Positions 32,981-59,253 of a stretch of DNA of 64,000 nucleotides are shown here, piece after piece. Made by a program: the position numbers and the translations under genes. How positions within the stretch are numbered: position 1 is the stretch's first letter; the number at the start of each line of letters is the position of its first letter. The DNA comes from Candidatus Bipolaricaulota bacterium (GTDB lineage: Bacteria > Patescibacteriota > Patescibacteriia > UBA11705 > DATKZF01). The notes beneath the pieces were generated by a model. The model was not told the DNA's origin, ran no database searches, and saw nothing but the letters and a program-made list of their open reading frames with translations. Location: assembly GCA_035528115.1 (NCBI GenBank), contig DATKZF010000003.1, positions 359,089-423,088 of the forward strand. The letters run 5' to 3'.

Positions 32981-32985
32981 CTATC

Positions 32986-33297: not shown

Positions 33298-33337
33298 CCT
33301 GGCCAGCTCTACGATCCACAATGAACGCTCGCCACCT

Positions 33338-34954: not shown

Positions 34955-34965
34955 GCTAAGGGCCC
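34889..34965 (-). tRNA. tRNA-Ala (anticodon GGC), G3:U70, CCA encoded
   Basis: Reverse complement GGGCCCTTAGCTCAGTTGGCTAGAGCGCCTCCATGGCATGGAGGAGGCCAAGGGTTCGAATCCCTTAGGGTCCACCA. Confidence 0.85.
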
Positions 34966-34988
34966 TTGGTTTGGGAATTGGAAACTGA

Positions 34989-35063
34989 TGGTGGGCGCAG
35001 GAGGACTCGAACCTCCAACCAATGGCTTAAGAGGCCACTGCTCTACCATTGAGCTATGCGCCC
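34989..35063 (-). tRNA. tRNA-Lys (anticodon CTT), CCA encoded
   Basis: Reverse complement GGGCGCATAGCTCAATGGTAGAGCAGTGGCCTCTTAAGCCATTGGTTGGAGGTTCGAGTCCTCCTGCGCCCACCA. Confidence 0.8.
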
Positions 35064-35068
35064 GAGAC

Positions 35069-35145
35069 TGGTGCAGCCGGAAGGATTTGAACCCTCAACC
35101 CCTTGGTCCGAAGCCAAGTGCTCTATCCAGTTGAGCTACGACTGC
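35069..35145 (-). tRNA. tRNA-Arg (anticodon TCG), CCA encoded
   Basis: Reverse complement GCAGTCGTAGCTCAACTGGATAGAGCACTTGGCTTCGGACCAAGGGGTTGAGGGTTCAAATCCTTCCGGCTGCACCA. Confidence 0.75.
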
Positions 35146-35151
35146 ATTAGA

Positions 35152-36640: not shown

Positions 36641-38260
36641 TTAATAGCTGAGATAAGGCATTGATTGCGGGTCGCAAAAGTTTGCGGCATCTCGGGAGGA
36701 GACATTTAAGATTGAAGAGACTTTTTCCGCGCAACCTTGTAGGAACGAATCATACGTCATAGTAGATAAGGTTTCTATCATAACATCGATAAAATCGGCT
36801 ATTTCCGGATTGGTTTCCGTTTCTTTAATGTCTTTTAACAATTGCGCACAGGCCGTTGTGTGGTCGGTGGAATAATAGTAATAACGATAGCTTTGAAACG
36901 CGCTCAACAAAATATCCAATTTATTTTTATTCGAAGCGCCCGAGTAAGCGTCTTTCAAAAAATCGGCGACATGTTTTCCTTCGCGAGAGTCGGAGATTTT
37001 AGAAGAAATGAAATATCTATCCAAATGATTCACAAGTTCGGCCTGCCCTTTTATTTTGTTGTAATGACTTTTCACGGACAACGCATTCAAATCAATGCCG
37101 AATGAAAAAAGGCAGGACAAAACAATCATGACCAAAATGGCGATCAGATTGCTGAGCTTGAGACCTTCCAGATATTGATTGGTTTTTAAATCGGATAAAC
37201 GGTAGATCGCGAAAACGCAATATAAAACAGTCATAAGCGCCAAGAACGCCAAGCTGAACAAAACGAGGAATCTGTCTGGCGTGATGCCGTATTGATTGAT
37301 GCGGGAAACGATGGCAAAAAGTCCGACCGCCAGCATGACTAAACTTTCAAATAACAAAGCGATCGAGGAAATCGACAGCGCCCGATGCGTTTTTTTGCCA
37401 GCTTCTTCGTGTTTTAAAAATATGCCGGTGAAATAAAGAACAACGATGTTGAACGAGGCCAGCGCCGCGAAAAGCACCGAGGTTTGCCCGGTTTTAAGAA
37501 TCACTGAAAAGCCGCTCGGCAAAAGAATGATTATGTAAAGAAGCAAAAGGCCTGACATCACAAACGAGATAACCATGAATATTCTGGAAAAGAGTTTTAA
37601 TATTTTGGTGTAAGGCTCTTGATCAATAACGCTTTTTTTCAAGTCATAGCAGAGAGAAAAAGCGAAGAAGCCGATGGTTGAATACACCACTGAAATAATC
37701 AAGACGATCAGTTTTTCGGGCACGGAGAATTTGATCAAAAAAAGCAAACCACTGAAAAGTCCGATAACGATAAGCGCGGCCAGGCCGAAGATGCCGGCGA
37801 TAACGACCGTTTCAAAAACTTTATTGATGAATTGATAAAAGGCCTCCGGAATTTTTTTCCAAGACTTTTCGCAAAAAGACAGGAGCAAGCCGATCAGCGC
37901 GGTGAAGAAAACGGCCTTCATGGCCAGATAAACCAACAAAGGCGGAGTTTGATCGAAAGAAAAGAAATACAGCGCGGCTTGAAAAGCGGCGAACAGCCCG
38001 ATTGACGCGCAGGCCAGTCCTTTGTTTTTTATTTTTTTGTACGACAACAGGAAATATACGAAGAAAGCGGCGAACAGCAAAATTTCCAAAAGCATAACCA
38101 GCGATTTGCCCACTGCCGGTTCACTCAATGAGCTGAATTTTTCGGAAACGCTGAGCAGATAAATGCCCCAGACTCCAAGACCGGTCAGGACGCCGATGAT
38201 GATGGCGCGAAGCGAATTTGTCCAATCGAATGAAGTTTTTGCGTTGGTGTTTTTTTGCAT
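36641..38260 (-). CDS. hypothetical polytopic membrane protein
   Basis: 539 aa, at least 10 TM helices. No family recognised. Confidence 0.45.
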   Translation of the reverse strand: MQKNTNAKTSFDWTNSLRAIIIGVLTGLGVWGIYLLSVSEKFSSLSEPAVGKSLVMLLEILLFAAFFVYFLLSYKKIKNKGLACASIGLFAAFQAALYFFSFDQTPPLLVYLAMKAVFFTALIGLLLSFCEKSWKKIPEAFYQFINKVFETVVIAGIFGLAALIVIGLFSGLLFLIKFSVPEKLIVLIISVVYSTIGFFAFSLCYDLKKSVIDQEPYTKILKLFSRIFMVISFVMSGLLLLYIIILLPSGFSVILKTGQTSVLFAALASFNIVVLYFTGIFLKHEEAGKKTHRALSISSIALLFESLVMLAVGLFAIVSRINQYGITPDRFLVLFSLAFLALMTVLYCVFAIYRLSDLKTNQYLEGLKLSNLIAILVMIVLSCLFSFGIDLNALSVKSHYNKIKGQAELVNHLDRYFISSKISDSREGKHVADFLKDAYSGASNKNKLDILLSAFQSYRYYYYSTDHTTACAQLLKDIKETETNPEIADFIDVMIETLSTMTYDSFLQGCAEKVSSILNVSSRDAANFCDPQSMPYLSY

Positions 38261-38308
38261 ACGTTACAAATATTGCGGCTATTAAGATAGCCTTTGTTTT
38301 ATATTTTA

Positions 38309-38446
38309 ATTGTTACGAATTACAATATTCTATTTAGCTTTTAGGTTATTTGTTACGAATTACAATCTGCTAAAGCATAAAGCCATAGAGGAATGTACTT
38401 CGTAACAATCGATTGGAAGCCAAGTGGAATATTGTAATTCGTAACG
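38309..38446. repeat. L-family element L1: inverted pair of units with 40-bp periodicity built on TTGTTACGAATTACAA
   Basis: Forward units at 38311 and 38351. Reverse-complement units follow (…ATTGTAATTCGTAACG at 38432). Forms an imperfect long hairpin of about 65 bp per arm. Confidence 0.75.
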
Positions 38447-38476
38447 ATACTCCATGCTAACATCATATCACCTGCG

Positions 38477-39916
38477 TTGATTTTGACAAATAAGGCAAAT
38501 GGTGATAAATTATATTTTATAAAGAAAGGGAAAAACCATATAGCAGCGCTAAAAATCAAACAATATTTGGTTAAGCTATTGCTAAGGATTTGCGATGAGG
38601 TGGGCGTGCTGGGCAGATATATAAAGAAGGCTTTTTCTTATATCGTCAAGCCGTTTATTATCATCGGAAAATTCATTTTCAAGTTTGTAATCTTGCCGAT
38701 ATACAAGCTTTATTTATTTTTTAAAAGGAGAACGCAAGTTTTTTACTTGCCGGCCAAGAGTAGATTCTTTTCATTTTTTTCCAAGAAATATTTTATTCAC
38801 GTGGTTGTGGTTTTCGTGTCTTTCGTGGTGGTGGTGAATAATATCAGCGCCAAGGAAATCAGAGATGACAATTTCGGCGAGAAAACCGCCATTTATGCCA
38901 TGTATAATGAAGCGACTTTGGGATATATCGAAGAGGTTGTTGATAGCGAGGCGAGCGCCCAAGCCAAGGTTTTCAGCTATTTGGACAAAACCATGGTTTC
39001 AAACAAACAGACCATTGTCATCGATTCTCAGGAAAGCGTGGCCGAAGATCAGCTCGCGGACAGCTTGACCACCGTAACCCAGGGCGGCGCAGCGCTGGTT
39101 AAACCAAATTTCACGGAAACCAATATCGCTCAGCGGGAAAGAAGCTCCAAAATATCTTACTCGGTGCAAGACGGCGATACTTTGGGCACTATCGCCGAAA
39201 AATTCGGTATTTCCATGCAAACCGTTTTATGGGCGAATAATTTAACGACCAGAAGCACGATTCAGCCGGGAGATGTCTTGGCTATTTTGCCGGTTTCCGG
39301 CGTTGTCCATATAGTTAAATCCGGAGAAACCATCGGCAAGATTGCGCAACGCTATGACACCGACGCTGAAAAGATTATTGAATTCAACAAATTGGCTGAC
39401 GCGTCGGATATTAAAATCGGAGATGAACTGATCGTGCCGGGCGGCACTCAGCCGGCCATCATTTCCGCGCCGCAATATGTCAGCAATAAGAACGTGAATA
39501 TCGCGCCGATTAAAAATTTGATTAACACTCCCCCGCCCGGAGCGACGGATATTCCGGCCGGGAAAATGGTTTGGCCGACGTCTTGGCACGTAATTACTCA
39601 ATATTACAGTCTTCGACATTACGGCTTGGACATTGATGGAGATTATAATTCTCCGATTTACGCGGCCGAGGCCGGCAAAATCATCAAATGCGGCTGGGGC
39701 ACGGGTTACGGCAATGTCATTTATATTGATCACGGCAACGGCGTGCAGACTCGTTACGCCCACATGAGCAAATTTTTCGTCTCCAACGGACAATATGTCG
39801 AAAAAGGACAGACCCTGGGCATGATGGGCACGACCGGCTGGTCCACTGGAACGCACCTTCACTTTGAAGTCAGAATAAACGGCTCGGCCATGAATCCGTT
39901 GAGCTATATCAGATAA
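38477..39916 (+). CDS. LysM-domain M23 family metallopeptidase (peptidoglycan endopeptidase)
   Basis: Two LysM repeats (YSVQDGDTLGTIAEKFGIS..., HIVKSGETIGKIAQRYDTD...). M23 motifs GLDIDGDYNSPIYAAEAG and HLHFEV. Confidence 0.8.
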   Translation: MILTNKANGDKLYFIKKGKNHIAALKIKQYLVKLLLRICDEVGVLGRYIKKAFSYIVKPFIIIGKFIFKFVILPIYKLYLFFKRRTQVFYLPAKSRFFSFFSKKYFIHVVVVFVSFVVVVNNISAKEIRDDNFGEKTAIYAMYNEATLGYIEEVVDSEASAQAKVFSYLDKTMVSNKQTIVIDSQESVAEDQLADSLTTVTQGGAALVKPNFTETNIAQRERSSKISYSVQDGDTLGTIAEKFGISMQTVLWANNLTTRSTIQPGDVLAILPVSGVVHIVKSGETIGKIAQRYDTDAEKIIEFNKLADASDIKIGDELIVPGGTQPAIISAPQYVSNKNVNIAPIKNLINTPPPGATDIPAGKMVWPTSWHVITQYYSLRHYGLDIDGDYNSPIYAAEAGKIIKCGWGTGYGNVIYIDHGNGVQTRYAHMSKFFVSNGQYVEKGQTLGMMGTTGWSTGTHLHFEVRINGSAMNPLSYIR

Positions 39917-40010
39917 TGCTTATAAAAAAATAAGGGTCTTATCCATGGCCTTTGTTTTTTATTTGGGTTTCGTTAAATGTTAAATATTGTTCCCTTGTTT
40001 CATTGCTTCA

Positions 40011-40207
40011 TTGTTACGAATTACAAGATTCTAATTAGCTTTTAGGTTATTTGTTGCAAATTACAATCGACTATTTGGCTTTCAGGTTATCTGTTACGCC
40101 TACCTACCTGCCTGCCGGCAGGAATTACATTTATAGCTATATGCCATAGAATCTTGTAATTCGTAACAACCGCTTCGAAGCCAAATGAAATATTGTAATT
40201 CGTAACG
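40011..40207. repeat. L-family element L2 (three forward units, a GC-rich insert with palindrome CCTGCCGGCAGG, two inverted units)
   Basis: Unit starts at 40012, 40052, 40092 and, reverse-complemented, at 40152 and 40192. Exact 40-bp spacing. Confidence 0.75.
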
Positions 40208-40229
40208 CTAATCCAGCCCCTTCGGGACT

Positions 40230-41741
40230 TCAGGATTTAGGTCTGTACTGCAACGCTTCGGCCACGTGATTCGCTTCAATGTTTGTTTTGCTTTCCAGAT
40301 CCGCGATGGTTCGCGATATTTTTAACACGCGGTGATAAGATCTGGGAGACAAATGCAATTTTTGCACGGCCGATTTCAACAATTCCAGCGAGGCGTTGTC
40401 CAAGGCGCAGAATTTTTTTATTTCCTGCGGCCGCATTTCTGAATTGAATCTGAGCGGGGAATTTTCAAATCGTTGGCGCTGGATGACCACGGCCGCGATC
40501 ACTCGTTGTCTTATTTTTTCGGAATTTTCAGAGCCGTCATCGGATTGTAGTTTTTCAAATTTGATTCTGGGCACGTCAAGGTGAATATCAATGCGATCAA
40601 TGATCGGGCCGGAGATTTTTTTCTGATACCTGATGATTTGCGAAGATGAGCATGAGCAGGGTTTGTCCGGATCGTTGTAGTAGCCGCAGGGACAGGGATT
40701 TTGGCTGGCGATGAGCGTGAAATTCGCCGGATAAGTGATGGTGCCTTGCGCGCGTGAGATTGAAATGACGCCATCTTCGAGCGGTTGCCGCAGGCTTTCC
40801 AAAACGCTTCTGGGGAATTCGGGCAATTCGTCCAAAAATAAAATGCCGCGGTGAGAGAGGCTGATTTCTCCGGGTTTGGGAAATTTTCCGCCGCCCACCA
40901 AGGCCACGCTGGAAGAGGTGTGGTGCGGAGACCGGAAAGGCCGGGAAGAAATAAGAAAATTGTCTTTTTTCAGCAGGCCGGCCACCGAATACATTTTTGT
41001 CACTTCCAGAATTTCCGCTTCGCTCATGGGCGGCAATATGGATGGCATGGTTTTGGCCAGCAAGGTTTTGCCCGAGCCGGGCGGCCCGCTCATCAGTACG
41101 TTATGGGCGCCGGCGGCCGCTATTTCCAAAGCTCTTTTGGCGTGTTCTTGGCCTTTGACATGAACCATGTCGCTGTCGAAAACAAGATTGGCGGCGGAAA
41201 TGTTTTTCAGCGGCTCGGCCGGAGCGATCGGATTTTTTCCGGAAAAGTGGTCGAAAAGCTGATTCAAATCTTGCGCCGGATAGATTTCAATGCCGGAAAT
41301 CAAGCCGGCCTCGCCGGCATTGGCCGCTGGGATGAATAGTTTTTTGTAATTGTTCTCTTTGGCGAAAAGCGCGATGGGCAAAATGCCGTTGACGTGCCTG
41401 ATTTGGCCGTCGAGCGACAATTCGCCAGCGAACAGGCTGTCGCTTAGTTCGTTTTTTAGCTGGCCGTCAGCGGTCAGAATGCCGATGGCCATGGCCAAGT
41501 CAAAAGACGGGCCTTCCTTTTTTATATCAGCGGGCGCCAGATTGATCGTCACCTTTCTTTTGGGAAATTCCAATCCTGAATTTTTTATGGCCAAATAAAC
41601 CCGCTCGCGAGCTTCTTGCACGGCCGCGTCGGGCAGTCCGACAATGATGAATTTCCTCACTTGGCTGGAAATGGCGGTTTCGACTTCAACCAATTGGCAC
41701 TCAAGTCCGAGCGTGGCGCAGGAATTTATTCTAGAATACAT
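40230..41741 (-). CDS. comM: YifB/ComM family Mg-chelatase-like AAA+ ATPase
   Basis: N-terminal MYSRINSCATLGLECQLVEVE (Lon-like/ChlI N-domain). Walker A GPPGSGKTLLAK. 503 aa. Confidence 0.8.
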   Translation of the reverse strand: MYSRINSCATLGLECQLVEVETAISSQVRKFIIVGLPDAAVQEARERVYLAIKNSGLEFPKRKVTINLAPADIKKEGPSFDLAMAIGILTADGQLKNELSDSLFAGELSLDGQIRHVNGILPIALFAKENNYKKLFIPAANAGEAGLISGIEIYPAQDLNQLFDHFSGKNPIAPAEPLKNISAANLVFDSDMVHVKGQEHAKRALEIAAAGAHNVLMSGPPGSGKTLLAKTMPSILPPMSEAEILEVTKMYSVAGLLKKDNFLISSRPFRSPHHTSSSVALVGGGKFPKPGEISLSHRGILFLDELPEFPRSVLESLRQPLEDGVISISRAQGTITYPANFTLIASQNPCPCGYYNDPDKPCSCSSSQIIRYQKKISGPIIDRIDIHLDVPRIKFEKLQSDDGSENSEKIRQRVIAAVVIQRQRFENSPLRFNSEMRPQEIKKFCALDNASLELLKSAVQKLHLSPRSYHRVLKISRTIADLESKTNIEANHVAEALQYRPKS

Positions 41742-41759
41742 AGTTTATTATTTGAATCA

Positions 41760-41933
41760 TTGTTACGAATTACATTCACTAAAAAGCTCTTTATTTGTAT
41801 TGTTACGAAGTACAAGATTCCATTTGGCCTACGGACGAATATTACAAATTACATTCACCTATAGCCTTAAGCCTGAGAATCTTGTAATTCGTAACAAATA
41901 ACCTGAAAGCTAAATAGAATATTGTAATACGTA
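41760..41933. repeat. L-family element L3
   Basis: Forward units at 41761 and 41801. Inverted units at 41881 and 41921. Right arm GATTGTAATTCGTAACAAATAACCTGAAAGCTAAATAGAATATTGTAATACGTAAC. Confidence 0.75.
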
Positions 41934-41976
41934 ACATTATTGTATCAATTTATCATCTGCGCCGGATAACCGCAAA

Positions 41977-42005
41977 TAAAAAAAGTCTCGAATTGGTCGA
42001 GGACT
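41977..42005. terminator. bidirectional hairpin terminator AGTCTCGAattggTCGAGGACT
   Basis: Flanked by an A-tract on one side and a T-tract on the other. Confidence 0.45.
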
Positions 42006-42374
42006 TTATTGTCCTGCGGGGTCTGTGAGCCCCTTGATTTTGCCGTATCTTTTCCACTTGTACCACCAAAAGGAAAATCGGACATCTCCCTTCTCGGCTT
42101 TTTGCTCGAGCATGGCCGCCAGTTGTCTGATCATGGCGTTCCCTTCTTTTTGGGTCTGGAAACAATAGTCCGGAAGCAGGCGATTGTTGAGCTTTGCCCA
42201 CATGTTGCCGTCCCAGATCATGATGATGACATAGCCGCTGTAGCCGTAGTTGGTATGCCTGCCCGCGGCCGCCTTGCGCCCTTCCCCATCCATTTTGGAT
42301 GTTATCCTGATATCACCGACTTCGAGTTCCCCGACTCCTTCGCTTTCGTAATCGCGGTGGAGAAAAACTCTCAT
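42006..42374 (-). CDS. hypothetical protein (GC-rich orphan minigene)
   Basis: Strong SD AAAGGAGG 8 nt before the ATG, giving MRVFLHRDYES... About 52% GC. Trimmed from ORF 42006..42434. No family recognised. Confidence 0.4.
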   Translation of the reverse strand: MRVFLHRDYESEGVGELEVGDIRITSKMDGEGRKAAAGRHTNYGYSGYVIIMIWDGNMWAKLNNRLLPDYCFQTQKEGNAMIRQLAAMLEQKAEKGDVRFSFWWYKWKRYGKIKGLTDPAGQ

Positions 42375-42473
42375 TGCCCGCCTCCTTTGGCATTGGTTCA
42401 TTCGCAGGGTATCATGGGAAAATAAATAATTCAAATAAAAAACAGCCGCCCTGGCCGTTTTTTTTATTTATAA

Positions 42474-43157
42474 TTAAATAATTCCCGTTAAAATCATGAT
42501 GCCGAAAACCAGCATGGCCAGGCCGATGATCAATCTCAGCCAAGAGCGGCTTTTCTTGCGCAGTTCTTCCAGCTTTTTAGAGGAATAACCGAAATAGACG
42601 AGCATCAAGATTATTATCAGCGGCAAAACGAAAATCAAATTATAGAGCAACAGGTAAAGCACCCCGTTCAAATAGGAAGCATTTACGGCCAAAAGAGACA
42701 AGATGGCGATATATACTCCTCCGGTGCAAGGAAGCTCGAACGCGGAAACCAAAACGCCCAGCACAATCGCCGCGGGCAAACTCGCTTTTCTAACATATTT
42801 TTCTATTAACGGTTTTTTGCTCTCCGGAATGCTTAAAGACAAGCCTTTGCCATACCAGAAAAAATCTTTGATGTTGATCAGGCCCAAAAATATCAATAAC
42901 ACGGCTGACAAACGATAGATGGTAATGGTGAGAGTATTGGAAGCGAGACCCAGCGCGGCCATCAAGCCGATGCCGGCCAGAAAATAAGTTAGATAAACGA
43001 AGAAAATATAAACCAACCCGACGGACAGCATTTGTTTCGGTTTTTTTAAAACGCTTAAAAAGGTTAACAAAAAAACCAGTACGGCAATGGCGCACGGATT
43101 GATGGAGTCAATGGCCGCGGCGCCGAGCACTGTCGAAATCGTCAATGAGTCAAACAT
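42474..43157 (-). CDS. ccdA: cytochrome c-type biogenesis / disulfide-reductase transmembrane protein CcdA/DsbD family
   Basis: AIDSINPCAIAV first-Cys motif. Six TM helices. Confidence 0.7.
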   Translation of the reverse strand: MFDSLTISTVLGAAAIDSINPCAIAVLVFLLTFLSVLKKPKQMLSVGLVYIFFVYLTYFLAGIGLMAALGLASNTLTITIYRLSAVLLIFLGLINIKDFFWYGKGLSLSIPESKKPLIEKYVRKASLPAAIVLGVLVSAFELPCTGGVYIAILSLLAVNASYLNGVLYLLLYNLIFVLPLIIILMLVYFGYSSKKLEELRKKSRSWLRLIIGLAMLVFGIMILTGII

Positions 43158-43159
43158 AA

Positions 43160-43705
43160 TTATTTTATTTTTTTTCTATTTTGTAAAACAATGAATAAAA
43201 TGACAACGCCTATCACCAGAATCCCGGCCACGATCAAGGCGATCATTTGATTTTTTTGAATGTCGTTTGCCGCCGCGTCGCTCGAGGCCGGTTCGTGCCT
43301 TTTTAAATAGTCTTGCACCAATTGATTGGGATCGGGACAATAATTTTGTTCGCAGTTTGATATCGCTTTTTCTATTTCTTCGACTTTTTCTCCGACAATG
43401 ACTTTATCTCCGATGAATAATGTGGGCACGGCCGTGCTCTGCGAGGAGTAGGTCAATCTGAAATCATTAAAAATATTGGCATTGCCCGACTTGGCCAAAT
43501 CCAGAATGCGCGCGTTGATTTTGGGATGACTCGTTTCTTTCCATTCGTCCAGCTTGCTTTCCACTACGGCGCAGTGAGGGCAGCCTTGCAAAACGAAAAC
43601 GTACATATCAATCGATTCGGCGGGCGCCGGATTTTGCGCGGTCACCGGACGCGAAATCATCAAGGCCGAAACGAGTATAGTCAATATGATTATTCTTTTT
43701 ATCAT
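43160..43705 (-). CDS. thioredoxin-fold thiol-disulfide oxidoreductase with C-terminal membrane anchor
   Basis: VLQGCPHCAV CxxC active site. Signal peptide. Adjacent to ccdA. Confidence 0.65.
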   Translation of the reverse strand: MIKRIIILTILVSALMISRPVTAQNPAPAESIDMYVFVLQGCPHCAVVESKLDEWKETSHPKINARILDLAKSGNANIFNDFRLTYSSQSTAVPTLFIGDKVIVGEKVEEIEKAISNCEQNYCPDPNQLVQDYLKRHEPASSDAAANDIQKNQMIALIVAGILVIGVVILFIVLQNRKKIK

Positions 43706-43771
43706 AGCTTAATATTTCTCGATTTTTTTATAGCCTACTTTTATAATAGCAAAAAGAAATAATACGTAAAG

Positions 43772-44254
43772 TTATTTTTTGATTTCTCTAACCGCGAAAG
43801 ATTCTTTGAATATCAGGATCAGCGCGCCGCAGACGATAAAAGTATCGGCGAGATTGAACACGGCGAAACTCCAATTAGCCAGTTGAATCGAAAAAAAATC
43901 GATGACCGCCCCGTGAATGATCCTGTCTATTAAATTGGATGTCGCTCCGCAAAAAATTAAAGATAAAGACAATACGGACAGGCTTTGTCCTTTTTGAAAC
44001 GTTCGGATGAGGAAAAAGACGATCGCGACCAGCAGTATTCCCACTATCAGAAAAATCAAAACCTGCGGCAACGGGATACTGAACGCCAAGTTTTCGTTTT
44101 TAACGAGACTTATTGAGAATTTAAAATAACTTAGATCGATTAAAAAAAATTCCCTTTGAATTTTTGACAGAACTAGATACTTTGACAGTTGATCTAGCAG
44201 TAACAAGACAAAGGGTATGATGAAAACAGATAATTTTGTTTTGTTGAAAGACAT
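43772..44254 (-). CDS. lspA: lipoprotein signal peptidase II
   Basis: NLAFSIPLP and VIDFFSIQLANWSFAVFNLADTFIVCG conserved blocks. Confidence 0.8.
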   Translation of the reverse strand: MSFNKTKLSVFIIPFVLLLLDQLSKYLVLSKIQREFFLIDLSYFKFSISLVKNENLAFSIPLPQVLIFLIVGILLVAIVFFLIRTFQKGQSLSVLSLSLIFCGATSNLIDRIIHGAVIDFFSIQLANWSFAVFNLADTFIVCGALILIFKESFAVREIKK

Positions 44255-44265
44255 CTGAATCCGAG

Positions 44266-44646
44266 CTATAACGATTTGAGTTTTGTTTTACACGATATGC
44301 AGGCGCTCGACGTCGGTCTGGCCAAAAGCCTTTTGTCGTCTATTTCTTGTTTGCAATATTTGCAGGTGCCGTATGTTCCTTTTTCGATTCGGTCCAAAGC
44401 TTTATTGACGTCTCTCAATTCTTTTTCAAGAGTCGCTTCGAGTGACAAATTTACGTCATAGGTAGCGACCTCATTGGTGTTTTCCGTTTCGTCATTGCCA
44501 TAATCCGGAAAATCCGCCTGATAATCCGTCGGGTCGTTTTTGCTCGGATGAGCGAATTTGGCCAATTCGTTTTCCAGATTGGCTTTTTGTTCCACCAGAT
44601 TTTGTTTGATTTGTTCAATAACCTTGTTATCCATATTACGTTTCAT
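44266..44646 (-). CDS. DksA/TraR family C4-type zinc-finger protein
   Basis: C-terminal CKYCKQEIDDKRLLARPTSSACISC. N-terminal coiled-coil. Confidence 0.7.
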   Translation of the reverse strand: MKRNMDNKVIEQIKQNLVEQKANLENELAKFAHPSKNDPTDYQADFPDYGNDETENTNEVATYDVNLSLEATLEKELRDVNKALDRIEKGTYGTCKYCKQEIDDKRLLARPTSSACISCKTKLKSL

Positions 44647-45215
44647 TTATGAGTTTAGTTTACCTAAAAAATAAGGTATTGGCAATATAACACATTTTTT
44701 TAAAATTTAAAAGGGCGCATGCGATCAGCCCAATTGGGTAAATATAAGGCTTGTATGCGCCCAGAGGCAAAGGAGATTTACGCCACTCCCGTTTCGACCG
44801 AAGTCAATTCGGAAGACAAGGCGTGTTTTGCCAATTTAGCGCTCGACGCGCTGTCCGGTTCCCGCTTCGCGGCGCTTGCCTATTGAGGCCGCGCCTTGGT
44901 AATTTCGTTTTTGTTTTTATTTTGTGACGTATGGCCGAGTCCGGTCGAGAAGGGCTCGGAATCAAAGCAGGTTTCGGAGTTTTCCTGTAGAGTAAGAGAA
45001 TGAGTGCGATTTTGCAAAGAACTGGTGTGAACACTGGAGGTGTTCACGTGTTGGTAGAGAGCTTGGAATGTGATCCGTTGTCTCTGCATATATTATATCA
45101 AGAACATTTTCTTGAGTCAATGTCTAATCCGTTGAATTATTATAAAAAGGCTAAAATTAGCCCCAATACGTGTGTTTATCGCGATTGATTCTTATTTGCG
45201 ACAATGCTTCATCTG

Positions 45216-45251
45216 TGGATAAGTGGTGTCTAAAGCCCATGTTATCCACAC
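45216..45251. promoter_or_regulatory. pair of inverted perfect DnaA boxes (TGTGGATAA at 45216-45224; TTATCCACA at 45243-45251)
   Basis: Exact matches to the DnaA-box consensus, 18 bp apart, in a 600-bp intergenic region. Confidence 0.5.
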
Positions 45252-45262
45252 GAAAGTTCACA

Positions 45263-46459
45263 CTAGTGTATACTTATGTCTATTTTTTGGTTCGACTCGG
45301 TGATTGATATGCTTGAAAATAGGAATATGTCCGGATTATTAATTACAATCTGGCTTTCTGGGTTTTTTGAGGTGTCGGCGAAAGACAAGTCCGAGGAATG
45401 CTCGGCAATGAGCTCCCTATTGTTTGACAGTAGAAATCCGGTATTTACTTCCCGTATATAGAATCTTTCAAAATCATTGCCCGCATTGAGCATCCCCATC
45501 TCATCGCTTCTTTGCCAGAGATCGTCGTTTGACGCCAGCATATGCTTGGCAATGGTATTGTCAGGCAGAATTCTCTCAACGATTTTTGGGTATTTTTCAG
45601 ATAAATAAGAAGAAATATTGTCTTGTAATAGCTTTTGTACGTCATTTTTTGCTATAATTAGCCAATTATCGTTTTTGTCCACGGCTAAATCAATACAATT
45701 GTTGAGATTATTTAAAAATATGAGGTTTTTTAAGGCAAAGTTTTGCGTGGATAAATTGTTAATATAATATTTCATCTCCTTTGAATCGCTTAAAACTAGA
45801 TTATTGTCGCAATTTTCCAAAGACTCTGAATCTTTTGCGGTCATTTTAAGCTCATCAGCTTCCGGTTGAGCTTTCCCGAAAAAATTAACGGGTAGGTTTT
45901 CTTCGGTCAGTTCGGCGGGTAAGAAGTCCAGATTCTTAAAAGATGGAATAAAAACGTTAATTAAGGATGTGTCCGTATATTTTGCGTGTCTATAAAAGTC
46001 GGAAGCGGCCAAGGATTCTTCTTCATCAATCAATTCACTTATACCGGCCTGATTTTGGAGACTTTCAAAAACAATATTCTTATAAACGTATTGCGCGTTA
46101 AAAACATCGGCGCTTTGTTTTTTTGGAACAAAGGCGAATATCCATTGCCCATCGAGATTAAAAATGGCAAATTCCTTTGAATTGGTTATTTTTTCGGTTA
46201 CATCATCAAAGCCCAAGCCGGAGACCAGCGCGAGGCCTTTTTTTATAACATCATTGTCCATATCCAGTTTTTGCGAGCGCCAATGAGAATAAAAGGAAAT
46301 TTGTTCGGAAATCACATTGTCGATTTGATCTCGATGATAATAATGAAAAAAGGACCCCAGAAAAAGAAAAATTCCTCCGAGCAGGGCGATTAAAACCGCT
46401 GCCGGAGGAATTTTTCCGGGTTTATTTGATTTTTTATTTATGAGATCTAGGCTGGGCAT
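45263..46459 (-). CDS. hypothetical membrane-anchored protein
   Basis: N-terminal TM helix. 398 aa. No family recognised. Confidence 0.4.
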   Translation of the reverse strand: MPSLDLINKKSNKPGKIPPAAVLIALLGGIFLFLGSFFHYYHRDQIDNVISEQISFYSHWRSQKLDMDNDVIKKGLALVSGLGFDDVTEKITNSKEFAIFNLDGQWIFAFVPKKQSADVFNAQYVYKNIVFESLQNQAGISELIDEEESLAASDFYRHAKYTDTSLINVFIPSFKNLDFLPAELTEENLPVNFFGKAQPEADELKMTAKDSESLENCDNNLVLSDSKEMKYYINNLSTQNFALKNLIFLNNLNNCIDLAVDKNDNWLIIAKNDVQKLLQDNISSYLSEKYPKIVERILPDNTIAKHMLASNDDLWQRSDEMGMLNAGNDFERFYIREVNTGFLLSNNRELIAEHSSDLSFADTSKNPESQIVINNPDIFLFSSISITESNQKIDISIH

Positions 46460-48659
46460 GCTCTTGGTTGTCTTCTTTTGGAAGTAATGCTTTTATTGAT
46501 AAATTAACTCGGCCTTGTTCGTCAATGCTGACCACTTTAACTTTGACGACTTGGCCGACTTTCAGTTTGTCAGTCACCTTATTAACTCGGTAAGGCGCTA
46601 TTTCCGAGATATGAACCAGCCCTTCTTGGTTGGCGAAAATTTCCACCATAGCTCCAAATTCAAATAATCTTGAGACTTTACCTTCGTAAATATCTCCGAT
46701 TTTGGCTTCTTTGGTCAAATCTTCAATCCATTTTTGGGCGCGATCCATTCCTTCCGCCGATTCCGAAGTGATAAAGACCATACCGTCCTGTTCGATATCG
46801 ATGCTAACGCCCGTCGCGTCAATGATTTCATTGATGATTTTGCCGCCGGGTCCGATGACATCCCTGATTTTATCCGGATTGATTTGCATGGTCAATATTC
46901 TGGGCGCGTAAGAGGAGAGTTCTTGTCGTGGTTCCTTGATCGTTTCCTCGATTACATCCAAAATTTTATGACGGGCATCCTTTGACTTCGATAAAGTTTC
47001 TTTGACTATATCGAGCGTTAGTCCGTGTGTTTTCGTGTCCATTTGAATGCAGGTAATGCCGTCTCTCGTGCCGGCGATCTTGAAATCCATGCCGCCATCG
47101 CCGTCTTCGAGGTCTTGCAAATCGGTTATTACCTTGAAGCGGCCTTGATCGTCGGAAGCCAGCCCCATGGCAATACCGGCAACCGGTTTTTCAAGAGGAA
47201 CTCCCGCGTCCATCAGTGCTAATGTTGAACCGCAGGTAGCGGCCATGGAGCTTGAGCCGTTGGAACTGAGCACTTCCGAGACCACGCGAATCGTATAAGG
47301 GAATTTTTCTTTTTCCGGCAATAAATTTTTTATGGCCCGCTCGGCGATTGATCCGTGTCCGATGTCTCTTCGTCCCGGTCCTCTCATCGGCCCGGCTTCT
47401 CCCACGGAAAATGGAGGGAAGTTATAATGATGCATGAAATTTTTCTTGCCGCTTTCCTCCATGCCCTCGAACGTTTGTTCATCTCCGGGAGCGCCCAGAG
47501 TCACGATGGACAGCACTTGCGTTTCGCCGCGAGTAAAAAGGCCGCTGCCGTGAGTTCTTTTCAAGAGACCTACCTCGCCGTCGAGATGTCTGATGTCGTC
47601 AGCGCCGCGACCGTCCACCCTGATGTTTTTTTCCAGAATGGCTCTTGAGATTTCTTCTTCGATAAAAGAAAAGAACGTATTTTTAATGAGTTTATTTCTT
47701 TTTTCCTTGCCAACTTGTTTTTCGATCAAATGAGCCTCCAAGACGTCTTGAAGTTTGCCCATCATTTCTTTTCTTTCGCGTTTACTGCCTTTGGGGATAT
47801 TGAAAACATAGGAATCGAGCTGAGAGCGCAAGAATTCTTTCGACTCTTCGACCAATTGTTGAAAACTTTCTTCAGAAAGTTTTTCGTCTTCGGTCAGTTC
47901 ATCCTCTTCGCTCATGATAGTCAATGATTGTTTTTCTTTGCCCACAGCATCTCTGATTTCATCGATAAAAGAAATTAATTTTTTGGTATGCTTAACCGCG
48001 AATTCAAAAGCTTGATAAACCATGTCCTCACCGGCTTCCCTTGATTCGGCGTCGACCATGATGACTTTATCCATGGTGGTGCCCACGACCAAGTCGAGAA
48101 TCGATTTTCCTCGCGCTTCATGAGAGCCGTTGATCAGCCATTCGCCATCAATTTGGCCGATGCGAATGCCGGCCACGGGGCCCGCCCAAGGAATGTCCGA
48201 GATATGAACGGCGATCGACGCGGCGATCAGTGAAACGACATCCGGGTCGTTTTCTCCGTCCGTGGACAGCACGGTGATGATTATTTGCACGTCGTTTTTA
48301 ATCGTTTTGTCGAAAAGCGGTCTGAGCGCGCGATCAATCATGCGGCCATTTAAAACCGCTTCGTCCGACGGACGTCCTTCTCGTTTGATATATCTTGATC
48401 CTTTGATTTTTCCGGCCGCGTAAAATTTTTCTTCGTAATCGACCATCAGCGGGAAATAATCAATGCCATCTCTGGGTTCCTTGCCCATGGTGGCCGTGGC
48501 CAAGACCACGGTATCTCCGTACTGAACGGTGCAGCTGGCATTCGCTTGAAGCGCCAGTTTGCCGACTTCGACAATCAATTGTTTGCCGCCGAATTCGGTT
48601 TCAAAGCGGTGGACGCCATCGTCCTTGCCGTCTTCATTTTTCTTGTTGAAAAACAACAT
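46434..48659 (-). CDS. pnp: polyribonucleotide nucleotidyltransferase (PNPase)
   Basis: Two RNase PH domains, KH and S1. Start trimmed to MLFFNKKNEDG (ATG at 48657-48659). Confidence 0.9.
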   Translation of the reverse strand: MLFFNKKNEDGKDDGVHRFETEFGGKQLIVEVGKLALQANASCTVQYGDTVVLATATMGKEPRDGIDYFPLMVDYEEKFYAAGKIKGSRYIKREGRPSDEAVLNGRMIDRALRPLFDKTIKNDVQIIITVLSTDGENDPDVVSLIAASIAVHISDIPWAGPVAGIRIGQIDGEWLINGSHEARGKSILDLVVGTTMDKVIMVDAESREAGEDMVYQAFEFAVKHTKKLISFIDEIRDAVGKEKQSLTIMSEEDELTEDEKLSEESFQQLVEESKEFLRSQLDSYVFNIPKGSKRERKEMMGKLQDVLEAHLIEKQVGKEKRNKLIKNTFFSFIEEEISRAILEKNIRVDGRGADDIRHLDGEVGLLKRTHGSGLFTRGETQVLSIVTLGAPGDEQTFEGMEESGKKNFMHHYNFPPFSVGEAGPMRGPGRRDIGHGSIAERAIKNLLPEKEKFPYTIRVVSEVLSSNGSSSMAATCGSTLALMDAGVPLEKPVAGIAMGLASDDQGRFKVITDLQDLEDGDGGMDFKIAGTRDGITCIQMDTKTHGLTLDIVKETLSKSKDARHKILDVIEETIKEPRQELSSYAPRILTMQINPDKIRDVIGPGGKIINEIIDATGVSIDIEQDGMVFITSESAEGMDRAQKWIEDLTKEAKIGDIYEGKVSRLFEFGAMVEIFANQEGLVHISEIAPYRVNKVTDKLKVGQVVKVKVVSIDEQGRVNLSIKALLPKEDNQEHAQPRSHK

Positions 48660-48764
48660 AATAATGAGTTCTGGTCGCCAGACTTTAGATTTCAAGAATC
48701 AATGATTTTTGATCATCGACCCTTGTGAAAATCTACTTGTCTTGCGACCAGAAACGATTAATTC

Positions 48765-49283
48765 TTATTTTCTTAATAAATATCTGGGTTTGTTCTTGCT
48801 CAAATCCGTGAAATCATCGGAGACCTCCACCAGTTTGTTGGAGGTTGTTTCTCCGAAAGCGATTATTTCCACCAGACAGCCTTTGTTTTCCTGTAAATAA
48901 GTCACCAGCGGCCGGAAATCCCCGTCACCTGTCACCAGCACTACCACATCCAGTTTATCAGCCAGTTTAATGGTATCCACGGCAATGCCCACGTCCCAAT
49001 CCCCTTTTTTCATTCCGCCCGGGAAGACCTGCAGATCTTTCATGGTTACTTCAAACCCTTGTTTTGACAAGGCATCGAAAAAAGCTTGTTCTTCTTTGGT
49101 TTGAGCTTTGATGACATAAGCGAGAGAGCGGATTAATTTTCTGCCCGCGATCGCGGATCTTAGAATTTCCTCGAAATTCACTTTTTTGCCGTATAAATTT
49201 TTCGCCGAATAATACATGTTTTGAACATCGACGAAAACGCCGATTCTTTGATCTTTGTGTTTGATCATACAAAAGAAAAGCAA
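48765..49283 (-). CDS. NYN/LabA-like PIN-fold domain protein
   Basis: IGVFVDVQNMYYSAKNLYG ... VVLVTGDGDFRPLV. Confidence 0.65.
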   Translation of the reverse strand: MLFFCMIKHKDQRIGVFVDVQNMYYSAKNLYGKKVNFEEILRSAIAGRKLIRSLAYVIKAQTKEEQAFFDALSKQGFEVTMKDLQVFPGGMKKGDWDVGIAVDTIKLADKLDVVVLVTGDGDFRPLVTYLQENKGCLVEIIAFGETTSNKLVEVSDDFTDLSKNKPRYLLRK

Positions 49284-49304
49284 CCAAAGGTTGCTTGGAT
49301 TATT

Positions 49305-49640
49305 TTATTTTTCTTCAGCCTTCATGGCCGCAGCCTCGGCTTCAATATCCTCATCCGATTGAGTGATTCGTTTTGATATTTTGATGTTTAATTCCCTGGT
49401 CAATTTATTGAAACTGGTCGGATTGTCGCTTTCCAAATATCTCAGCAACCGTCTTCTTTCTCCCAGTTTTTTCAATAAACCGCGTCTGGATGAATGATCG
49501 TGTTTATGCGCTCGAAGATGTTTGGTCAATTCCACGATTTCCTCCGTTAAAATGGCTATTTGCACCTCGGACGAGCCGGTGTCTTTCTCATGGGTTTTGT
49601 ACTTGTTGATGATTCGTTGTTTTTTTTGCGCAGTTAACAT
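49305..49640 (-). CDS. rpsO: 30S ribosomal protein S15 with C-terminal extension
   Basis: N-terminal S15 pattern (QKKQRIINKYKTHEKDTGSSEVQIAILTEEIVELTKHLRAHKHDHSSRRGLLKKLGERRRLLRYL). Conserved pnp-adjacent position. Confidence 0.75.
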   Translation of the reverse strand: MLTAQKKQRIINKYKTHEKDTGSSEVQIAILTEEIVELTKHLRAHKHDHSSRRGLLKKLGERRRLLRYLESDNPTSFNKLTRELNIKISKRITQSDEDIEAEAAAMKAEEK

Positions 49641-49916
49641 ACTTTTGCCAATACCGGAGACGGGACGCTACCTTGGTTGACTGCCCTCATCCCCCGTACC
49701 GCGTTAATAATAATAAAAACTTCTTTAAATAACTCTAACACATATCGGCAAACCGCGCAAGAAGGGGAAAGGGAGCGAAATCTCATTGCATAAATTGATT
49801 TGGTGTCGTAAAATACTATTACGAGATTACAGATTTGAATACAGATGATACGAGATAGGAGTGAGAGAGTTAATCTGTATAATCTTGTATGTTTATCGGT
49901 AATCTCGTATATTCAT

Positions 49917-50873
49917 ATGTCAAATAAAACGGAAATAGAAAAACTTATCCAAGAGTTTTTGGAAGATCTCGAAGTCACTTATAATCGTTCGCTTAGAACC
50001 GTGAATAATTATCATTTTTATTTATCTCGCTTTGCGGGGTATTTGTCCGGAAAAAACATAAAAGTTCCCGGCGGCATTACCCTGGATGATGTCAGGCAAT
50101 ATCGACTGTGGCTTAATCGTCTTCAAAGCAACAAAAAAGAGTTTTTGAAATCGAATACGCAAAATTATCATTTGATCGCGGTGCGCGCCTGGTTGAAGTA
50201 TTTGGCAAAAAGAGACATCAAGGCCTTGGCCGCTGAAAAAATAGATTTGGCCAGAGTGCCGGAGCGTTCCGTGGAATTCCTGGACGGCTCGGATTTGGAA
50301 AGATTGCTGGAAGCACCTTTGACTTCCAAAAACCCGGGGATTATTAAAAAACGCGACAAAGCCATTTTGGAAACATTTTTCAGCACGGGCTTGCGCGTGT
50401 CCGAATTGGCCAATTTGAAAATAGATTCCATTAATTTGAAAAAAGACGAATTCACGGTTCGCGGCAAAGGCGACAAGCCGCGCATAGTTTTTTTATCGAA
50501 TCAATCTCGCCACTGGCTGTCGGAATATTTGAAAATGAGAAAGGATTCCAATCCTTTTCTTTTTATTTCACATGATCGAGCGGCCAAGGGACGAAAAACC
50601 GTGAACGACGCCGGTTTGACGCCGAGAAGCATCCAGCGATTGGTGGAGCGTTATTCGAAAGCCGCGGGGTTGACCAAAAAAGTCACTCCGCATACCATGC
50701 GGCACAGCTATGCCACGGATTTATTGATGAATGGGGCCGATATTAGAAGCGTTCAATCCATGCTGGGGCATTCTTCCATCACCACTACGCAGATTTACAC
50801 GCACATTACCAATCAGCAGTTGCATGACGTGCATAAGGCGTTTCATGGCAGGAGTCGTCGGAAGAAGTCATGA
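49917..50873 (+). CDS. xerC: tyrosine recombinase XerC/XerD family
   Basis: C-terminal HTMRHSYATDLLMNGADIRSVQSMLGHSSITTTQIYTH containing the catalytic R-H-R-Y residues. Start trimmed to the ATG at 49917. Confidence 0.85.
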   Translation: MSNKTEIEKLIQEFLEDLEVTYNRSLRTVNNYHFYLSRFAGYLSGKNIKVPGGITLDDVRQYRLWLNRLQSNKKEFLKSNTQNYHLIAVRAWLKYLAKRDIKALAAEKIDLARVPERSVEFLDGSDLERLLEAPLTSKNPGIIKKRDKAILETFFSTGLRVSELANLKIDSINLKKDEFTVRGKGDKPRIVFLSNQSRHWLSEYLKMRKDSNPFLFISHDRAAKGRKTVNDAGLTPRSIQRLVERYSKAAGLTKKVTPHTMRHSYATDLLMNGADIRSVQSMLGHSSITTTQIYTHITNQQLHDVHKAFHGRSRRKKS

Positions 50874-50952
50874 ATCACGTATCATGTAACACACAACACA
50901 TAACATGAAACATGAATCATGGAGCACGTATCACATATCACGTATCATGAAG

Positions 50953-51017
50953 CATGCCTGCTCCTCGAGTCTTAGCGACGAGATAGCATGCTCCGAGTCG
51001 AAGACCGGCAGGCAGGC
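50953..51017. repeat. tRNA-family GC-rich repeat T4 (inverted orientation, no tRNA adjacent)
   Basis: Reverse complement CCGGTCTTCGACTCGGAGCATGCTATCTCGTCGCTAAGACTCGAGGAGCAGGCATGC aligns with T1. Confidence 0.65.
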
Positions 51018-51062
51018 GTAACAAATAACCTGAAAGCTTCATAAAATCTTGTAATTCGTAAC
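51018..51062. repeat. L-family half element L4 (GTAACAAATAACCTGAAAGC...TCTTGTAATTCGTAACAG)
   Basis: Matches the right arm of L3. Directly abuts T4. Confidence 0.6.
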
Positions 51063-51152: not shown

Positions 51153-52310
51153 ATGAAAATACTATACTTAATAACTCAATCAACTTGGGGCGGCGCGCAA
51201 CGTTATGTTTATGATTTGGCTGTCGGTATGAATAAAGAATTTGAGGTGGCTGTCGCCTGCGGCGGTGATGGCGGGCTGATCAAAGAACTGGCAAGAAAAA
51301 AAATAAAAGTGATTCCGTTGAAATATCTGAAAAGAGATATTTTATTTTTGTCAGACATCAGATCCTATTTTGAAATAAAAAAATTGATTAAAGAGGAACG
51401 GCCGGATATTTTGCACGTCAACAGCAGCAAGGCCGGGTTTTTGGGAGGTTTGGCCGCTCGATCTTTCCCCAAAACAAAAGTGGTTTACACTGTGCACGGC
51501 TCGGTTTTTACCGCGGCATTCAATATTTTTTATCGTTGGTTATTTAAAATAATCGAGAAAACGACTTCAAAACACAAGGATTCCATTATTTTGGTCTCCA
51601 ACCATGACCGTTCGCTGTGGCTCGAAAACAAAATTTGCGAATCCGAAAAATTATTTGTGATACATAATGGCATTGACGTCGCGCTTGAAGAATTATTTTT
51701 GCCCAAAGAGCGGGCGCTGGCCGCGCTGTTGCCGGCTGAAAAGGAGATTAATCTTAAAATTATAGGTTGCATTGCCAATTTTTATGCTGAAAAAAACCTG
51801 CTCTCGTTTTTATCGGTTTTCAAGGAGGTTTCAAAAGAGGTTTCGAAATGTCGGTTGATTTTAATAGGCGACGGTCCGCTTCGTCGGGAAATAAAAAAAT
51901 ACGTTCGCGAGAATGATTTATCTGAAAAAGTAATTTTACCCGGATTTATAAAAAACGCTTGGCTGTATTTAAAGGCTTTTGATTTGTTTGTCTTGCCGTC
52001 AAAAAAAGAAGGCTTCCCATACACGATTTTGGAAGCCTTGTTGGCAAAGGTGCCGGTGGTGGCCAGCAGGGTCGGAGGAATCCCTGAAATCATCGGCGAC
52101 GAAAGCACCGGCCTGCTTTTTGACAGCGCCGACTCGCGGCAGTTGGCGGAAAAGATGCTAATATTATTGAAAGACGAAGTTTTTGTCGCGCAGTTGGTGG
52201 GAAATGGCATTAAGAAGGTCAAAGAATCATTTAACCTCACTGGCTTTTTGGATCAAACGAAAAAGATTTATCTGTCTTCATTGTTAGCGGCGTCCGATGA
52301 GGAGAAGTAG
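51153..52310 (+). CDS. glycosyltransferase family 4
   Basis: EGFPYTILEALLAKVPVVASRVGGIPEII. Confidence 0.75.
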   Translation: MKILYLITQSTWGGAQRYVYDLAVGMNKEFEVAVACGGDGGLIKELARKKIKVIPLKYLKRDILFLSDIRSYFEIKKLIKEERPDILHVNSSKAGFLGGLAARSFPKTKVVYTVHGSVFTAAFNIFYRWLFKIIEKTTSKHKDSIILVSNHDRSLWLENKICESEKLFVIHNGIDVALEELFLPKERALAALLPAEKEINLKIIGCIANFYAEKNLLSFLSVFKEVSKEVSKCRLILIGDGPLRREIKKYVRENDLSEKVILPGFIKNAWLYLKAFDLFVLPSKKEGFPYTILEALLAKVPVVASRVGGIPEIIGDESTGLLFDSADSRQLAEKMLILLKDEVFVAQLVGNGIKKVKESFNLTGFLDQTKKIYLSSLLAASDEEK

Positions 52311-59206: not shown

Positions 59207-59253
59207 GAATTTGATACGTGATTCATGTTCCGTGTTCCATGATTCATGAAAAC

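Follow-up and report, generated by a model that had tools for sequence, protein, structure and literature searches.

A lineage-specific foldback repeat of 40-bp tandem units, probably a decaying miniature interspersed element, in a Patescibacteria genome

How did one short sequence come to stand, at regular intervals and in both orientations, in four separate spacers of a single gene neighbourhood? We asked this of a 64,000-nt window (the whole stretch of DNA analysed; contig DATKZF010000003.1, positions 359,089 to 423,088), which is chromosomal DNA of a metagenome-assembled genome (MAG) from Patescibacteria, that is, the candidate phyla radiation (CPR). Four loci in this window, L1 to L4, carry units built around the core TTGTTACGAATTACAA, three of them beside the genes for a LysM-M23 peptidase (M23) and a YifB/ComM-type ATPase (ComM), as listed in Table 1. 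An L copy is an imperfect palindrome of ~140-200 bp whose arms are tandem arrays of two or three 40-bp units. We think it probable that L1-L4 are copies of a lineage-specific, non-coding foldback repeat, a miniature interspersed element resembling MITEs (miniature inverted-repeat transposable elements) and BOX elements, which is now decaying. Most likely, the L repeat represents a small insertion element, either selfish or neutral, and not an array that regulates genes or encodes guide RNAs.

Allowing up to two mismatches, the core occurs 13 times in the window, compared with 0.07 occurrences expected from 100 shuffles, and all 13 matches are confined to L1, L2, L3 and L4. Across ~81 kb of the host genome (the window plus 8.3 kb on each side), these four loci alone match either the core at the same threshold or a hidden Markov model of the 40-nt unit, which recovers them at E values of 1e-9 to 1e-10; the two extensions contain no further L copies, and core matches with three or four mismatches outside the loci are few, isolated and at chance level. 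The sequence of L2 and L3 is reproduced exactly in an independent Logan assembly of another run, on a contig (L009) that ends inside L2 and L3, which establishes that the elements are real and not an assembly artefact. Full elements measure 138-198 bp, and no open reading frame (ORF) is called inside them. These results bear out much of a sequence-only reading of the window, which had proposed a single repeat family at these four loci, made of units that run first forward and then inverted and could fold into long hairpins, with an extra GC-rich insert in L2 and with the M23 and ComM genes each sitting between two elements; it had also set aside a CRISPR array on the grounds that the sequences between cores are related, and the linkers are indeed homologous. 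Its claim of exact 40-bp spacing holds only as regularity, as the core-to-core distance is 39-40 bp. Its layout, in which forward cores precede inverted ones in each full locus (L1-L3), is correct for the units it described and needs two additions: L3 is inverted relative to L1, and L1, L2 and L3 each have a further degenerate unit outside the first core.

The 40-nt repeat unit consists of the 16-nt core and a 24-nt linker (consensus KATTCYATTTRGCTTTYAGGTTAT). Conservation within the unit peaks in the core, and the linkers are homologous to one another both within and between loci. Tandem Repeats Finder detected the 40-nt period in L2 independently, and the unit itself has a 7-nt sub-period, with a self-match of 0.55 at a shift of 7 compared with ~0.29 elsewhere, a value reached by 6 of 5000 shuffles. 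Because of this tandem period and its sub-period, we take the apparent 40-bp phasing to be the length of a tandemly duplicated unit, and the unit probably has its origin in simple repeats. Imperfect heptamer tracts (ATCACGT ATCATGT AACACAT and similar) are common in the spacers of this host, mostly right after gene ends, and a similar tract is present at 960-1040 of a contig from a relative (L010, described below). Intergenic heptamer direct repeats are also known in other bacteria, for example the TAACTGA repeats (PMC4679880).

The two arms of the palindrome are distinguishable. The A arms (left-hand in L1 and L2, right-hand in L3, and the sole arm in L4) show 83-95% identity between loci and the B arms 76-85%, compared with just 66-80% for A against B. 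L1 and L3 match at 82% over 140 nt as reverse complements, compared with 72% in direct orientation, and 38 nt ahead of the first core, L1 and inverted L3 share the sequence TTGCGGYTAT. L3 and L4 are inverted relative to L1 and L2, and the arm-specific signatures, coupled with the reverse-complement match between L1 and L3, indicate that complete oriented elements were copied in both orientations. The number of units varies from copy to copy, being 2+2 in L1, 3+2 in L2, 3+2 in L3 and 1.5 in L4.

Could the regular spacing nevertheless reflect phased protein-binding arrays, in which the 16-nt core acts as an operator or centromere-like site every 40 bp and serves to organise or regulate the origin-proximal region? 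Such arrays would be consistent with four or five regularly spaced sites per locus, with the conservation of the core and of the A arms, and with the position of the loci, which lie close to true parS sites and at 22-37 kb from dnaA and dnaN. In this sense the L loci recall the sopC centromere of plasmid F, which has a 16-bp SopB site in each of its 12 tandem 43-bp units; both have tandem units of ~40 bp with a 16-bp, partly symmetric site in each. The sopC units, however, all run in one direction beside sopAB, whereas L units reverse direction half-way, lack nearby partition genes and are missing from relatives. Several features of the repeat also argue against site arrays more generally. The linkers are conserved and complementary as well, as descent rather than selection on sites predicts; the asymmetric centre of the core (TTGT-N8-ACAA outer symmetry) is conserved as well as its symmetric ends; no isolated core exists outside the elements in the 81 kb; no partition or regulator gene adjoins the L loci; 40 bp corresponds to 3.8 helical turns, so that the sites do not fall on one face of the helix; and the 7-nt sub-period points to a simple-repeat origin. 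We therefore regard binding arrays as very unlikely, and the suggestion of the sequence-only reading that a DNA-binding protein sets the phase over about four helical turns finds no positive support.

The parS sites of this chromosome are found elsewhere. Three canonical sites (TGTTTCACGTGAAACA; two perfect and one with a single mismatch) lie within 750 bp, at 59186-59201, 59804-59819 and 59918-59933, where 0.06 would be expected by chance. This trio probably marks the chromosomal ParB loading region, ~43 kb from dnaA, and the L elements were rejected as parS candidates on their anatomy.

Each full L locus folds into one long hairpin of 57-68 pairs (z -5.6 to -14). L1 reaches -65 kcal/mol (z -14.3, 59 pairs), L2 reaches -61 (+ strand) or -66 kcal/mol (- strand), with z -5.6, and L3 reaches -49 and -59 kcal/mol on the + and - strands, respectively (z -7.3). 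Folds of this stability would suit a functional structured RNA, either as long hairpins in untranslated regions (UTRs) or as small or antisense RNAs, influencing stability, RNase III processing or attenuation for M23, ComM or their neighbours. Consistent with such a role, the two strands differ by ~10 kcal/mol in free energy and the better strand follows the orientation of the element (L1 +, L3 -), and G:U-compatible mismatches in L1 favour that better strand by 8 to 3 (binomial p ~0.11). In addition, the A-to-B direction of L1 and L3 points into the adjacent gene start (M23 and ComM, respectively), promoter-like hexamers make use of the -10-like TACAAT present in the core, and effects on transcripts are known for the Correia, ERIC and BOX repeats (PMC3049150).

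The evolution of the hairpin does not follow this expectation. Of the pairs compared between L1 and inverted L3, 39 were unchanged, 7 had changed on one side without loss of pairing, 11 had lost pairing through a change on one side, and none showed a compensatory change; with 11 of the 18 one-sided changes pair-breaking and none compensated, we see no evidence that the hairpin is under constraint. The strand asymmetry falls short of significance, and because it was inherited from one ancestor the loci are not independent tests of it; we read it as a weak hint at a strand-specific single-stranded form. In an Rfam scan of the window, tRNAs alone passed the gathering threshold and no L element fell into any family. 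The best sub-threshold match of the L elements, to a plant miRNA-precursor model (43 bits against a threshold of 139), reflects a generic long hairpin. M23 has terminator-like and promoter-like sites of its own outside L1 and L2, separate terminator-like sites outside the elements are present at 39925-39960 and 41987-42001, and the orthologous spacers of relatives with the same genes are without L elements. A Rho-independent terminator was rejected, given that no T-run follows the hairpins on either strand and that L1 and L3 lie at gene 5' ends. Collectively, a functional RNA appears rather unlikely, and the structured antisense or small RNA envisaged from the sequence alone lacks positive support. 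On the evidence of their sequence, L elements may possibly have side effects on neighbouring genes, through hairpins in UTRs or the -10-like TACAAT.

Comparison with relatives shows that these spacers need not contain the repeat. The closest ComM matches among the named ones come from Patescibacteria, Parcubacteria, Kuenenbacteria and Falkowbacteria. In one relative (L010, GCA_049319825.1; ComM 71% identical), the whole block is kept in the same order and orientation, from the genes for a GT4 glycosyltransferase, the Xer-like recombinase, S15, NYN and PNPase onward via SfLAP, ComM and M23 to NusB and RNase III. Its spacers at the three counterpart sites are 113, 140 and 246 bp long and contain ordinary terminators and no L-like repeat, compared with ~265, 313 and 306 bp for the equivalent spacers of the window. 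At two of the three sites the window spacer is ~150-175 bp longer, about the size of an element, and at the third, where the far-side gene differs, it is ~60 bp longer. Two further relatives (L012 and L013; ComM 74% identical) have no L repeat either. Spacers at this distance (ComM 71-74% identical) are too diverged to align, so that exact element boundaries are not derivable from them. Since the spacers of relatives are without the repeat, we conclude that L elements are probably lineage-specific insertions, and because M23 and ComM are conserved and syntenic in relatives that lack L repeats, these genes are not their cargo. The same observation, of unchanged gene order and orientation, led us to reject a composite transposon or inverton extending from L1 to L3 around M23 and ComM, and a link to the neighbouring tyrosine recombinase was rejected on account of its Xer-like nature and its syntenic position in a relative that has no L copy. 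In this regard, the confinement of cores to elements, and the absence of elements from relatives including one with the same gene order, bear against both the protein-phasing and the RNA proposals.

A further clue to the history of the family comes from a second repeat nested within it. L2 and L4 break at the identical core position, after GTTACG, where CCTGCCTGCCGG follows; the same 12 nt are present at both loci, and inside the core the common break reads GTTACG followed by CCT..CCTGCCGG. In L4 the junction runs on into a GC-rich repeat, which we call G, and further G copies are located immediately 5' of tRNA genes. The G repeat has two conserved blocks, GGTCTTCGACTC and GATCTCGTCGYTMAGACTCGAGGAGCAGGC, and the outer flanks of its copies differ yet stay complementary (GGCCGG/CCGGCC, GGCGGG/CCCGCC, GCCTGC/GCAGGC); it may be a structured element. 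The common break and the shared 12 nt indicate that L2 and L4 go back to a single ancestor in whose core G had already inserted. To judge from the remaining sequence, L2 would have kept only the ends of that insertion (CCTACCTACCTGCCTGCCGGCAGG) and L4 would have lost the distal half of L. The common junction therefore means that the composite was copied to another site, 11 kb from the first. Nesting of small bacterial repeats has been described before (PMC3049150).

This composite copy is also relevant to the proposal that the family spread without transposition machinery, by local segmental duplication, gene conversion or slippage among AT-rich, heptamer-rich spacers. A non-mobile origin would sit well with the presence of all copies within 13 kb, with the failure to find either a target-site duplication or a transposase, and with the 7-nt sub-period of a unit whose host has heptamer tracts in many spacers; gene conversion could moreover explain the high similarity of the A arms. 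It would also have to account for copies in both orientations, in four separate spacers with unrelated flanks and with conserved genes between them, and for the fact that L4 has the nested junction of L2, which needs a composite copy reaching a new site. On balance, we consider a non-mobile origin unlikely, while keeping it in view.

Among known repeats, pneumococcal BOX elements and bacterial MITEs appear to come nearest to L in behaviour, and in architecture the nearest appear to be foldback elements or transposon ends that contain multiple subterminal binding sites. BOX elements of Streptococcus pneumoniae (boxA-boxB(n)-boxC; PMC3049150) are, like L, small, non-coding, intergenic and strongly base-paired; they contain a variable number of a tandem module of ~40-45 nt, occur in both orientations, and cluster with and nest in other small repeat families. 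The variable unit number and degenerate edge units of L resemble boxB modules (PMC3049150). The two families differ in that they have no sequence similarity, that 3.5 copies of L were seen compared with >100 for BOX, that the L module forms both arms of the palindrome while the BOX module sits between distinct A and C ends, and that no insertion sequence (IS) with matching ends is known for L. MITEs such as Correia/NEMIS of Neisseria are, like L, ~100-200 bp long, AT-rich and hairpin-forming, with terminal inverted repeats; in L, the 16-nt core is inverted at both ends, and the element sits in spacers whose counterparts in relatives, though too diverged to align, are without it. In contrast to MITEs, L has arms of tandem sub-repeats, a very low and local copy number, no target-site duplication that we could find, and no partner transposase in the window or its flanks. 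Its membership in this class is thus incomplete, agreeing in size, inverted ends and structure and differing in target-site duplication and partner transposase.

Foldback (FB) transposons of eukaryotes have long inverted arms of tandem sub-repeats with little or no central region, and the ends of Tn7, Mu and IS21 contain several subterminal transposase-binding sites. L resembles these elements in its long arms of tandem sub-repeats and its scant central region, in that a short site is repeated two to three times directly at one end and inverted at the other, and in that its ends start with TGT and finish with ACA; it differs in having no linked transposase, no duplication of 4-8 bp and linkers that are conserved between arms. 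Repetitive extragenic palindromes (REPs) and the bacterial interspersed mosaic elements (BIMEs) are, like L, extragenic palindromes that form mosaics with other short motifs and have no target-site duplication, and a strand-specific hairpin is plausible for both. REPs are single palindromes of 20-40 nt with hundreds of copies and a RAYT gene, whereas the L core, with only 4+4 symmetric outer bases, forms no stable hairpin alone, its 13 occurrences lie at four loci, and the 81 kb contain no RAYT/Y1 gene.

A guide-RNA array, CRISPR-like or TIGR-Tas-like, comes to mind because the host is a CPR bacterium, a group in which TIGR arrays occur, and because the unit of ~40 nt is near the 36-nt TIGR unit (PMC12045711). 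Within that unit of TIGR arrays, edge repeats alternate with loop repeats (8-12 nt each), along with variable 9-nt spacers, A and B; the arrays usually comprise 5-15 units in one orientation, with an adjacent Nop-domain Tas gene (PMC12045711). The L loci, in contrast, have one 16-nt core, homologous 24-nt linkers and a half-way inversion, and their neighbours are M23, ComM and DUF4153. Accordingly, we rejected a CRISPR array (a core of just 16 nt, spacers related to one another, and units that invert half-way) and a TIGR array (there are no alternating edge and loop repeats and no 9-nt variable spacers, and two to three units are followed by inversion). Neither the window genes that were scanned nor the precomputed Pfam annotations of the called genes include a Nop-domain match, and we attach next to no probability to a guide-RNA array. 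Integron attC sites and cassettes were also rejected, as GTTACGA does not fit GTTRRRY and the order of M23 and ComM is kept in relatives without the repeats; the only tyrosine recombinase present is Xer-like and syntenic in a relative.

Several observations weigh against a foldback insertion element. No transposase, RAYT or Y1 transposase domain was found in the genes of the 81 kb, whose only recombinase-type genes are the Xer-like tyrosine recombinase, a large serine recombinase (33-35 kb) and GIY-YIG genes. No transposase adjoins any copy, as one would if the elements were known IS terminal repeats with an adjacent transposase, one of two refuting cases named by the sequence-only reading; for the other, loss of the 40-bp spacing in copies beyond the window, the searches yielded no outside copy to compare. 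No direct repeat of 2-9 bp flanks L1, L2 or L3 at a TGT...ACA or TTGT...ACAA boundary, a result that is not absolute given the fuzzy boundaries. Just 3.5 copies were seen, clustered as described, which fits local duplication or a local function too. The A arms are better conserved than the B arms, which could mean constraint on one arm, and the difference in free energy between strands and the one-sided wobble-compatible mismatches belong on the same side of the balance.

With these points in mind, it is tempting to propose a history for the family. An ancestral element, with A and B arms already distinguishable, would have been copied into several spacers of an otherwise conserved, origin-proximal gene block, and unit numbers would later have changed through slippage or unequal exchange. 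The G repeat would then have nested inside one core, in the common ancestor of L2 and L4, after which L4 would have been truncated and the copies would have entered their present decay. The element could have spread by mobilisation in trans, through a transposase recognising the repeated 16-nt core at either end, much as in transposons with multiple subterminal binding sites, or by local duplication or recombination.

Against this reading as an insertion element stands the idea that the L loci are functional, either as phased arrays of 16-nt sites read by a CPR protein or as a strand-specific hairpin device of RNA or single-stranded DNA. The support for it consists of the A-arm conservation and the weak strand bias, and we consider it very unlikely. 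If it were true, the loci might represent a private centromere-like or nucleoid-organising system, or one that regulates the origin-near hydrolase and ComM genes, with the unusually conserved A arm as the active part, and they would point to a new DNA- or RNA-level system in CPR bacteria. As a small insertion element, the L repeat is of a kind hardly described in reduced CPR genomes, and a literature search on miniature inverted repeats in the candidate phyla radiation returned nothing on the topic. One CPR genome can evidently hold several private, mutually nesting families (L, G, heptamer tracts and the 29-nt palindromes described below); these families break short-read assemblies and could act as sources of promoters, RNA hairpins or substrates for recombination. 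Annotators may take from this that even spacing and a conserved core are not enough, on their own, to identify a CRISPR/TIGR-type array or a phased protein-binding site.

Searches beyond the window returned no other member of the family. We scanned genome and metagenome contig collections for two cores 20-35 nt apart. The genome collection gave a single match, an unrelated heptamer tandem repeat in an Ignavibacteria MAG, and the metagenome collection gave six, four of which were inspected and all found to be unrelated (tandem heptamers, coding repeats, operator-like triplets); neither scan returned the source genome itself, so that, with poor coverage of the lineage, these scans say little on close relatives. 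Among viral contigs, 38 had a single core and none a second one (up to two mismatches), which is chance level, and the core-plus-linker pattern had no matches. Blastn of L1 against phage and plasmid sets found no match, and six-frame L peptides found nothing at E up to 10 in a database of 5.8 billion proteins. GIY-YIG paralogues, used as a route to more host DNA, led to a sole same-genome paralogue that is already inside the window and to a related contig (L056) without L units. The double-core scan also brought up GGTTACGAATTACACC-like motif triplets on two unrelated soil metagenome contigs (L002 at 470-530 and L007 at 870-925), which look like operator repeats in the spacer of a high-GC bacterium and are unrelated to the L family.

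Table 1. Repeat copies, their parts and neighbouring genes, in positions of the window
Feature	Position	Strand	Description
L1	38310..38447	+	Full element: 2 forward units, loop, 2 inverted units; between divergent DUF4153 (-) and LysM-M23 (+)
L1 arms	38310-38365 (A); 38393-38447 (B)		
L1 extra unit	~38262-38309		Degenerate
L1 core starts	38310, 38350; 38393, 38432		Forward (40 bp apart); inverted (39 bp)
L2	40011..40208	+	Full element: 3 forward units (third core split), 2 inverted; between convergent 3' ends of M23 and ComM
L2 core starts	40011, 40051, 40091; 40154, 40193		Forward (40, 40 bp; third core split); inverted (39 bp)
L2 insert	40099..40122	+	24-nt GC-rich CCTACCTACCTGCCTGCCGGCAGG between GTTACG and AATTACA of third core
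L3	41760..41937	-	Full element, opposite orientation: 2 well-kept inverted units, 3 forward (1 degenerate); flanked by the upstream small gene's terminator and the start codon of ComM
L3 A arm	41882-41937		
L3 core starts	41760, 41800, 41839; 41882, 41922		Forward (40, 39 bp; third degenerate); inverted (40 bp)
L4	51017..51064	-	Truncated: one A-type unit and half core
L4 core start	51049		Half core 51017-51024 in 40-bp register
G repeat copy	50943..51016	-	Abuts broken L4 core
Further G repeat copies	17627-17687; 18048-18136		Immediately 5' of tRNA genes on the - strand
Heptamer tracts	17319-17365; 20819-20857; 50867-50968; 59209-59252; 60885-60931		
DUF4153 gene	36641-38260	-	
LysM-M23 peptidase gene	38477..39916	+	Public gene call starts 38567; syntenic in relatives
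YifB/ComM-type Mg-chelatase-like AAA ATPase gene	40230..41741	-	Conserved, syntenic in relatives
dnaA and dnaN	14.5-17.3 kb	+	
Xer-like tyrosine recombinase gene	49845-50873	+	
GT4 glycosyltransferase gene	51153-52310	+	

The window holds other features of note. A gene-free gap of ~620 nt (44647-45262), between the gene for a 398-aa protein and a DksA/TraR-type gene, is 66-69% identical at the nucleotide level to the syntenic gap of the relative L010 (6772-7420), in contrast to the L-bearing spacers examined, which have no obvious similarity to their L010 counterparts. It contains two perfect DnaA boxes (TTATCCACA) in inverted orientation (45214-45222 and 45242-45250) and has no Rfam match, and it may be a conserved non-coding RNA or a replication or regulatory region. 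A private repeat family is formed by the 29-nt near-perfect palindrome GTAGGAACAGGGCAATGCCCTGTTCCTAC, present at 5863-5891, 8940-8968 and 14267-14295, whose copies adjoin Wzy-type genes and also lie upstream of dnaA. Duplicated GIY-YIG nuclease genes (95 aa, 82% identical; 10153-10838 and 12797-13206) lie on either side of a polysaccharide-synthesis gene amid 36-nt repeats (TTGTCATCTCGACCGAAGCGGAGAGATCTTTTCCTA), an arrangement that looks like a small mobile or homing cassette. An integrated element, or what is left of one, probably accounts for a GC-rich island at ~32000-35150 (54-60% GC compared with ~43% elsewhere), which contains the gene for the large serine recombinase (33287-34954) and borders on three tRNA genes (34892-35145). 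Finally, a 63-nt tandem repeat (3.3 copies, 98% identical) occupies 28464-28668 within a coiled-coil ORF (28214-28753, - strand), and near-identical terminator-like 55-mers stand at 28110, 29343 and 29718.

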